Made by a program: the position numbers and the translations under genes. 64,000 bases of DNA from Escherichia coli (GTDB lineage Bacteria > Pseudomonadota > Gammaproteobacteria > Enterobacterales > Enterobacteriaceae): assembly GCF_024223415.1 (NCBI RefSeq), contig NZ_CP100500.1; one strand, written 5' to 3'. The notes below the pieces were generated by a model that was given only the letters and a program-made list of their open reading frames with translations, did no database searches and was not told the DNA's origin. Below, piece by piece: positions 7,495-8,254 of the stretch (position 1 is the first letter of the stretch; every line of letters begins with the position of its first letter).

Positions 7495-7821
7495 TCAGGG
7501 ACGTGATGGCGTAAAGATAAATTGTCTCTTCACTCCCTGACGGGGACTATTCTTTTCAAATCTCCATTTCGCCATGGCCTTCACCACTTCATCACGAAAC
7601 AAATTATGAGGCTCTGAGCGGAGAAAAACGATCCGTGTCACAGTCCCGTCAGCACCAATATCGAACTTAACCTCAACCAGCCCCTTGATATAATTTGCTG
7701 CAGCATATTCCGGATATCGTGGATACACCGTCACTAATTGCCGGGGCTCATCAGCTTTTTGCTGCGAGCATCCCACTGCCAGGGCAGATAACAGAAAAAG
7801 TAGTGAAAGGCGTCTTTTCAT
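7495..7821 (-). CDS. Lipoprotein with TonB C-terminal-domain-like module (prophage moron, bor position)
   Basis: Start at internal ATG 7821 (MKRRLSLLFLLSALAVGC, lipobox AVGC); YPRYPEYAAANYIKGLVEVKFDIGADGTVTRIVFL...FRDEVVKAMAKWRFE parallels host TonB C-terminus [35 protein letters not shown]...[15 protein letters not shown] encoded at 29193-29912. Confidence 0.65.
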   Translation of the reverse strand: MKRRLSLLFLLSALAVGCSQQKADEPRQLVTVYPRYPEYAAANYIKGLVEVKFDIGADGTVTRIVFLRSEPHNLFRDEVVKAMAKWRFEKNSPRQGVKRQFIFTPSRP

Positions 7822-8254
7822 TTTTATTCCTACGGGTCTTATTCTGACAATATATCCTGTGTTCCAGACTGCCACATCACCACATCCTGTGCCATTATCT
7901 GACTCACATTACATACATCGCATCAGGATACAGTAGTAGCACTTTCTGTAATACAGCTTCCGGTTTCTTCCACCATCGCACCGGACTGGCGAGCATGAGG
8001 GACAAACCCGCGAACCATAAACGCGGTAAAAACCCGGTGTGCATCGTTTTTGATTATTCCCGCACACTCGCGCAGAAGGAGTTCCCCGTCGGGCTACGGT
8101 CATGGTTAATGCGGGAATACAGCGACGATACAGCGCATGATGTGTCAGGCTTGAATACCTTTATCCGTTAAAAGGGATATCAGTTAAGTTATCCCGTGTA
8201 GGGTATAAGCCATTATCAAAGCCACTCTGTAGGGAGTGGCTTTTGTAATGGCAA

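Follow-up and report, generated by a model that had tools for sequence, protein, structure and literature searches.

A prophage lipoprotein built on a TonB C-terminal domain, and its possible role as a decoy in the Ton system of Escherichia coli

A lambda-like prophage in Escherichia coli contig NZ_CP100500.1 (assembly GCF_024223415.1) carries a gene for a 108-amino acid protein in which a lipoprotein signal peptide is followed, after a very short linker, by a single TonB C-terminal domain. The gene was studied within a stretch of 64,000 nucleotides, referred to here in its entirety as the window. The best explanation of this protein, to which a probability of roughly 0.4 is given, is that it serves as a decoy: presumably anchored in the outer membrane, it would occupy the TonB boxes of TonB-dependent transporters and may thereby alter what enters the lysogen. 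The gene, its recognizable parts and the host gene with which it is compared lie as follows.

7495 to 7821, minus strand: coding sequence of the TonB_C lipoprotein, 108 amino acids, stop codon included (open reading frame list, translation and RefSeq coding sequence; ratio of nonsynonymous to synonymous substitution rates, dN/dS, 0.12 against the clade at 70% identity).
7768 to 7821, minus strand: signal peptide and lipobox, MKRRLSLLFLLSALAVG-C18, with Ser19 at position +2 (read from the sequence; Cys18 is invariant, and +2 is Ser, Ala or Thr in all relatives).
7516 to 7725, minus strand: TonB_C domain, residues 33-102 (Pfam PF03544, E=3.2e-13; AlphaFold2 predicted local distance difference test score, pLDDT, >95; Foldseek matches 2gsk_B and 2grx_C at a root-mean-square deviation, rmsd, of 1.0-1.3 Å).
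7828 to 7831, minus strand: Shine-Dalgarno sequence AGGA, 6 nucleotides before the ATG (read from the sequence; kept in phage 21 and in the O157 clade).
29193 to 29912, minus strand: host tonB, 239 amino acids, comparator and presumed competitor or partner (open reading frame list; BLASTP, 41% identity over TonB residues 150-230).

The gene product and its relation to TonB

The minus-strand open reading frame (ORF) reported in an earlier, sequence-only reading of the window is real, as is the 108-amino acid protein, but the coordinates attached to it there (7495-7875) are those of the longest ORF in the list, 126 amino acids from an upstream GTG at 7875 to the stop at 7495. The coding sequence itself is 7495-7821 and begins at the ATG at 7821 (minus strand), behind its AGGA. 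RefSeq annotates the same 327 bp in an identical E. coli genome, under the name "TonB family protein".

That the mature protein is a module resembling the TonB C-terminal domain, as was proposed in that reading, is borne out by sequence comparison and by the predicted fold. TonB_C (PF03544) is the sole Pfam family reported, the TIGR01352 score of 48.6 bits exceeds the cut-off of 27.1 and so places the protein within the TonB_C family, and BLASTP aligns it with host TonB over 81 amino acids at 41% identity and without gaps (E=3e-19). The motifs listed earlier (YP, G-V-VKFD, DG-V and F-EV-AM-WR-E) are all present in this alignment, in which Y36-P37 is matched with Y163-P164 of TonB and the aromatic core of F52, F75, W86 and F103 is conserved. 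In a sequence search of the PDB, all matches at E<=0.01 are C-terminal domains of the TonB family, the best having E=2e-14. The similarity to TonB is far beyond chance.

The AlphaFold2 model, made from 25 relatives and with pLDDT above 95 over the domain, is predicted to contain a helix at residues 38-42, strands at 47-55 and 61-70, a second helix at 76-83 and a strand at 94-103 that is equivalent to β3 of TonB. The structural comparison with TonB_C that had been suggested as a check gave significant Foldseek matches: the model superimposes on transporter-bound TonB at 1.0 Å (2gsk_B, BtuB complex) and 1.3 Å (2grx_C, FhuA complex), and free TonB (1u07_A, rmsd 1.1 Å, E=6e-8) and 1ihr are also among the structures matched, whereas TolA domains score far worse. 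The BFVD library of predicted viral structures returned no related fold and no significant match. In TonB, β3 pairs in parallel with the TonB box of FhuA (PMC11658791). The prophage chain ends with TPSRP after the β3 equivalent and has no β4-like strand.

With TonB (PDB 2GRX, 2GSK, 1U07 and 1XX3) the prophage protein thus shares the YP motif, the aromatic core, an α/β fold that agrees to about 1 Å, the β3 strand and 41% identity, but TonB has a transmembrane anchor, coupling to ExbB/ExbD, a proline-rich spacer and a strand after β3, and the prophage protein is without all four. Where TonB has the N-terminal cytoplasmic-membrane anchor used for ExbB/ExbD coupling there is a cleavable lipoprotein signal (AVGC), and where TonB has its proline-rich, periplasm-spanning spacer there are only the seven residues S19-E25. 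The TonB equivalog models NF008080-84 score 46-67 bits versus cut-offs of 265-448. The protein is a member of the TonB_C family and not a TonB energy transducer.

The N-terminus consists of MKRR, 12 hydrophobic residues and A-V-G-C18, which fits a classical lipobox, and the seven-residue linker runs from Cys18 to P26, the first conserved residue of the domain. In E. coli, Asp at the +2 position retains a lipoprotein in the inner membrane; since the +2 residue here is Ser19 and not Asp, the protein is predicted to be sorted to the outer membrane, the membrane opposite to that in which TonB is anchored. The lipoprotein signal with its +2 Ser, another element of the initial proposal, stands up to comparison: it is conserved among relatives that span 40-100% identity, and a lipobox followed by a residue other than Asp was found in every relative examined, including both E. 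coli clades described below, homologues on a Klebsiella phage and on plasmids, and all 80 copies on viral contigs.

Distribution and phage context

The gene is present in 1,615 of 5,426 complete E. coli genomes (~30%), always under the name "TonB family protein", and its carriers include uropathogenic (UPEC), adherent-invasive (AIEC), enterohemorrhagic (EHEC) and extraintestinal pathogenic (ExPEC) strains. It falls into two clades, one at >=95% nucleotide identity (1,224 genomes) and the other at ~73% identity (391 genomes, O157:H7 among them). In public protein collections each main allele occurs on ~1,000 or more contigs, again with generic TonB names. Sequenced phages that have the gene are the classic lambdoid phage 21, where it is annotated "TonB C-terminal domain protein", Shiga toxin (Stx) 1a phages and JLK-2012; the ev017 copy is annotated "partial tonB-like ... 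CP-933N", that of Perceval (AIEC strain LF82) "TonB fragment", and a Klebsiella phage carries a 41%-identical copy. The statement that this is not a described system is therefore correct for function only: the gene itself, annotated in phage 21, ev017, Perceval and some 30% of E. coli, is already known and catalogued.

Residues 91-94 (7540-7551) differ among members of the clade found in the window. The window carries a rare allele, …KNSPRQG…, seen at one of 80 viral-contig loci and, at >=99%, in 22 of the 1,615 genomes; the common allele reads …KNRPCQG…, which puts an additional Cys into the loop that precedes the last strand.

Around the gene, the following features bear on its setting and expression.

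8454 to 8936, minus strand: Rz i-spanin, within which the Rz1 o-spanin is embedded (8495-8701); these form the genuine spanin pair, directly upstream in the late operon (open reading frame list; RefSeq "lysis protein").
5994 to 6503, minus strand: Nu1-type small terminase subunit, the downstream edge of the accessory-gene slot (open reading frame list; RefSeq "terminase small subunit").
7354 to 7419, minus strand: hairpin followed by a U-rich tract, ~75 nucleotides past the stop codon, a putative terminator for the cassette (the RNA folds at -22.3 kcal/mol, with z = -3.5 versus shuffles).
7948 to 8140, minus strand: conserved non-coding block 5' of the gene, possibly a promoter or 5' region (~90% identical between the gene clades).

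The placement of the gene between the lysis cassette and the terminase genes, also part of the first description, is confirmed by the ORF list and RefSeq: endolysin, Rz and Rz1 (8454-9451) flank it on one side, and the Nu1-type small terminase and TerL (4094-6503) on the other. All the phage contexts examined show the same arrangement, with the gene on the late-gene strand, the lysis cassette on one side of it and the small terminase gene on the other, and they comprise three packaging-module backgrounds (the Nu1/cos type, HNH with a P27-type terminase, or others). A scan of viral contigs, from which 80 loci were kept, with only the two E. coli clades represented, gave copies that are intact at 108 amino acids with a lipobox in all 80 cases; the same-strand neighbors of these loci, where detected, are Rz at 0.6-2.2 kb upstream and the small terminase gene at 1.0-1.5 kb downstream.

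The gene had been described as sitting "in the bor position" of lambda, and this is not the case. In phage 21 and in Perceval, bor (on the opposite strand) and the TonB_C lipoprotein gene (on the late strand) coexist side by side, so that the gene is a neighbor of the bor slot and not its occupant. On the viral contigs bor is found 0.77 kb upstream, on the opposite strand, at 14 of the 36 loci of the 95% clade, whereas the 44 loci in the other clade all lack it. The prophage in the window is without bor.

Selection and expression

The gene is under strong purifying selection. Between the clades the synonymous divergence (dS) is ~1.45, which is saturated, while dN is 0.17, giving a dN/dS of 0.12. 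By segment, this ratio is 0.05 in the core (residues 40-90), 0.25 over residues 27-39, the region of TonB Q160, and 0.19 over residues 91-104 (the loop and β3); the latter two segments are more variable, yet they are not positively selected.

In AIEC strain LF82, the 96%-identical copy LF82_160 ("TonB fragment") is listed among the genes expressed in the lysogen, 8-fold above the prophage background, and its log2 fpkm (fragments per kilobase per million mapped reads) is 5.0-6.6 in lysogeny broth, in Dulbecco's modified Eagle's medium (DMEM) and in macrophages, versus 2.3-4.3 for the flanking endolysin, Rz and terminase genes (PMC9928086). The bor gene of LF82 swings from 4 to 11 on the same scale and is strongly induced in DMEM and in macrophages, whereas LF82_160 is flat (PMC9928086). 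By these data the LF82 copy appears to behave as an autonomous prophage accessory gene, or "moron".

A sigma-70 scan of the gene strand found no good match, and inspection by eye turned up no more than an xATAAT element whose -35 is poor. The strongest sigma-70-like match in the region is antisense, inside the gene, at 7667-7694 on the plus strand (TTAACC-16-TATAAT with a TG, 10/12). The block at 7948-8140 (~200 bp) retains ~90% identity between the clades despite the synonymous saturation of the coding sequence, and 33 distinct versions of it occur among the fetched loci. It is found in 433 phage records, including lambda, where it lies just past bor, and Stx phages of the 933W/24B type. The block was considered as a small protein, which its lack of codon periodicity and frame-breaking indels reject, and as a known RNA, for which Rfam gave no match; it could represent a promoter or 5' region that is shared.

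Iron regulation through a Fur-like site at 8431-8449 (15/19, the highest score in the region) was considered and rejected, in part because LF82 expression is flat. The site lies 600 bp upstream of the gene, beyond a terminator-like hairpin, and within an Ile/Leu-rich, hydrophobic 50-amino acid ORF (8314-8466, minus strand) that overlaps the Rz stop, and for these reasons it is probably an artefact of codon composition; Fur-box matches in the promoter region of host tonB reach 12/19, below the score of this site.

A possible decoy at the TonB box

The mechanism envisaged begins with an independently expressed prophage accessory gene. Its product would be held by the seven-residue tether directly below the TonB-dependent transporters, as a single TonB C-terminal domain on the periplasmic face of the outer membrane. 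Having no transmembrane anchor, proline-rich spacer or link to ExbB/ExbD, the protein should be unable to transmit energy, and for a domain sited at TonB boxes that cannot transmit energy, competition with TonB would be the simplest consequence. As a competitor within the Ton system it would lower productive TonB coupling, and lowered coupling would in turn let fewer TonB-dependent phages (the T1 and phi80 types), colicins and microcins enter, while siderophores and vitamin B12 would also be taken up somewhat less well. The broader proposition, put forward somewhat more tentatively than occupancy of TonB boxes as such, is that the gene encodes a natural, phage-borne Ton inhibitor that captures TonB boxes or TonB itself and makes the lysogen broadly tolerant, whatever the receptor, of TonB-dependent phages, group B colicins and microcins.

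The scheme has a precedent and an analogy. In E. coli, iron uptake through TonB-dependent transporters is reported to be inhibited when the periplasmic domain of TonB is over-expressed (Howard et al. 2001, as cited in PMC9841981). The analogy is with Llp of phage T5, an acylated outer-membrane lipoprotein that blocks FhuA from the periplasmic side. Binding was addressed by an AlphaFold2 prediction for a fusion construct in which residues 22-108 are flanked, through linkers, by FhuA 1-20 carrying I9P on the N-terminal side and by wild-type FhuA 1-20 on the C-terminal side. In the predicted structure the wild-type TonB box (T8-T12) is assigned as a β strand by DSSP and the I9P copy is not, in a single run in which the pairing partner was not seen.

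Plasmid homologues keep company with exclusion and immunity genes in some cases. On the Klebsiella pneumoniae IncFIB/IncFII plasmid NZ_CP073792.1 (5956-7717), a 43%-identical TonB_C lipoprotein gene is followed after 49 bp by the gene for the entry-exclusion lipoprotein Exc2 (NF033828), and it adjoins a cloacin-immunity gene and an E3-type rRNase colicin gene truncated by an insertion sequence; close copies of this lipoprotein are carried by ~40 Klebsiella and Pantoea plasmids. A 129-amino acid TonB_C lipoprotein homologue is encoded directly upstream of a Qat anti-phage system (KAP NTPase, QatB, TatD-like) on a metagenomic, plasmid-like contig with ParM/StbB (5348-11737). A search of the defence models of PADLOC-DB 2.0 with the prophage protein gave no family at E<=0.1. 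A compensating linkage to sitABCD was considered and rejected: sitABCD is present in Perceval and absent from the prophage in the window, and the linkage is not consistent.

A number of observations weigh against a decoy at TonB boxes. The peptide pLDDT in the fusion test (block mean) is ~72 for wild-type and I9P copies alike, and AlphaFold2 was trained on TonB complexes. In the alignments, TonB Q160 falls on Tyr or Leu, R158 on Thr or Lys and R166 on Tyr; these are positions that we take to be transporter contact or suppressor positions in TonB. Other Klebsiella and Pantoea plasmids examined have a different, unannotated lipoprotein gene downstream and not that of Exc2, so the Exc2 adjacency of one Klebsiella plasmid lineage is a hint and not a rule. 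Among the more distant short TonB_C lipoproteins, some are encoded on chromosomes beside housekeeping genes (ahpCF and genes for a glutathione S-transferase, GST, and an acetyltransferase), which suggests that the fold may serve a non-defensive role. Blocking the Ton system in general ought to carry a cost, and yet the gene is found in 30% of E. coli genomes, including those of siderophore-dependent ExPEC, AIEC and EHEC. Full-text literature yielded no functional study of the gene. Expression of LF82_160 does not respond to macrophage or DMEM conditions, and its mRNA is modest, similar to that of host tonB (PMC9928086). A Fur-box scan found no convincing Fur site upstream of the gene. Transporters outnumber TonB in the cell, and with an LF82_160 mRNA this modest the titration of all TonB boxes therefore looks stoichiometrically hard; a transcript at about the level of tonB would instead make TonB itself the likelier target, provided that the protein acts as an inhibitor in the first place.

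Alternative explanations

The alternative that survives best, though it is held to be rather unlikely, is that the TonB_C fold serves in this protein as a general-purpose periplasmic module that binds peptidoglycan, Lpp/OmpA or another envelope protein, in which case the gene would be a fitness gene of the Bor/Iss type, acting in serum or stress resistance or in outer-membrane tethering, with no effect on the Ton system. The TonB C-terminal domain has itself been reported to contact peptidoglycan, Lpp and OmpA. Such a role agrees with the position of the gene beside bor in phage 21 and Perceval and with its being expressed, as bor is, in the lysogen, with the plain chromosomal contexts (ahpCF, GST and acetyltransferase genes) of other short TonB_C lipoproteins, and with the lack of conservation at the presumed TonB contact residues. 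It is opposed by the finding that the closest solved relatives, in both sequence and structure, are TonB C-terminal domains, including transporter-bound TonB; Pfam showed no similarity to Bor, OmpA-like or LysM families.

Less probable again is a decoy aimed at TonB and not at its box, in which the outer-membrane-tethered domain would heterodimerize with TonB's C-terminal domain by strand exchange and hold TonB unproductively. A transcript near the host tonB level suits 1:1 titration better than the saturation of thousands of transporters, and the absence of a β4-like C-terminal strand leaves the β3 edge free. Both 1u07 and 1ihr, which we take to be strand-exchanged dimers of TonB C-terminal fragments, are among the structure matches. 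The in vivo relevance of such dimers is, however, debated, and the AlphaFold2 fusion test favored a TonB-box strand, in a construct that did not include TonB.

Very improbable is that the gene is a functionless, captured tonB fragment that hitch-hikes in the mosaic region between lysis and terminase genes, as the older annotations "partial tonB-like" and "TonB fragment" would have it. A dN/dS of 0.12 at saturated synonymous divergence and the intact state of all 80 viral-contig copies lead to its rejection, and these selection data essentially refute it. A lipoprotein signal has moreover been acquired and then conserved over 40-100% identity, the gene is preceded by a ribosome-binding site of its own and followed by a terminator-like hairpin, it occurs in three packaging-module backgrounds, and the LF82 copy is expressed in the lysogen (PMC9928086).

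The least probable reading, a spanin-like lysis accessory protein, follows from a full-length match to PHROG 1267 ("Rz-like spanin", E=2e-40) and from the position of the gene just downstream of Rz/Rz1 on the late strand, and is rejected on the grounds that the prophage already has a complete Rz/Rz1 pair (8454-8936), that the compact TonB_C domain shows neither the coiled coil that an i-spanin has besides its transmembrane segment, nor the proline-rich character of an o-spanin, nor a hydrophobic C-terminal transmembrane segment such as u-spanins combine with a lipobox, and that the LF82 copy is transcribed in the lysogen while endolysin and Rz are silent (PMC9928086). Since PHROG 6954, which bears the same label, matches frames of the nearby non-coding block, both labels look positional and are likely misannotations.

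Relation to known systems

A decoy that captures TonB boxes would share several features with the superinfection exclusion lipoproteins of phages. T5 Llp and the lambdoid Cor proteins are small phage lipoproteins whose site, predicted or shown, is the outer membrane's inner leaflet and whose action on a TonB-dependent transporter comes from the periplasm, as that of the prophage protein would. Llp binds the surface of the FhuA plug, acting allosterically and independently of TonB transport, whereas the proposed decoy would capture a TonB box by β-strand pairing and would not be receptor-specific. The view that the protein is distinct from Cor/Llp was upheld: no homology to Cor or Llp, and no shared family or fold, appeared in PHROGs, Pfam, PDB structure matches or BFVD.

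The periplasmic fragments of Howard, Herrmann, Stratilo and Braun (2001, J Bacteriol 183:5885), as far as that report is represented in PMC9841981, likewise place a TonB C-terminal domain in the periplasm without energy coupling. They were made in the laboratory from E. coli TonB itself and are soluble and over-expressed, whereas the prophage protein is natural, diverged, modestly expressed and, by prediction, lipid-anchored. Bor of lambda and Iss of plasmids provide a third comparison, as each is likewise the product of an accessory gene beside the lysis cassette, expressed in the lysogen and encoding an outer-membrane lipoprotein (a location that is predicted for the prophage protein). Bor/Iss differ in belonging to another family (the prophage protein has no Lambda_Bor match in Pfam) and in being encoded on the opposite strand, and bor coexists with the TonB_C lipoprotein gene in phage 21 and Perceval.

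The architecture is unusual in that a known domain, TonB_C, would be lipid-anchored at the membrane opposite to that of TonB and is encoded on a mobile element. If the decoy proposal is correct, a very common prophage gene modulates the sole energy pathway for siderophores and vitamin B12 in E. coli, a pathway that is also exploited by many phages, colicins, microcins and siderophore-antibiotic conjugates. This would amount to receptor-independent superinfection exclusion, on a principle distinct from that of Cor/Llp. It would bear on host range in phage therapy and on the ecology of colicins and microcins in the gut, could influence how susceptible E. coli is to "Trojan horse" antibiotics, and would provide a natural tool with which to probe the recognition of TonB boxes by TonB. 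If the proposal is wrong, there is still a strongly conserved lipoprotein gene, expressed in the LF82 lysogen, in a model phage where experiments are easy.

Other features of the prophage

Near cos, on the plus strand and so against the direction of the late genes, a small ORF (6879-7130) has a translation in which a signal peptide precedes a C-terminus rich in Cys, …TGTCDASPIPGCTCPFCTMLRSQNR. The ORF has no RefSeq annotation and no PHROG match, and may be spurious or may encode a small secreted accessory protein.

The prophage (~1-26,200 of the window) is integrated in ompW, with a partial copy of ompW at its far end, and lies ~3 kb from host tonB. It also carries hokD, a gene for a protein with a YadA C-terminal domain, and tRNA-Lys/Ile genes, and is without bor and sitABCD. 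The identical strain Ch1 has frameshifts in its genes for the J tail tip and the major capsid protein.

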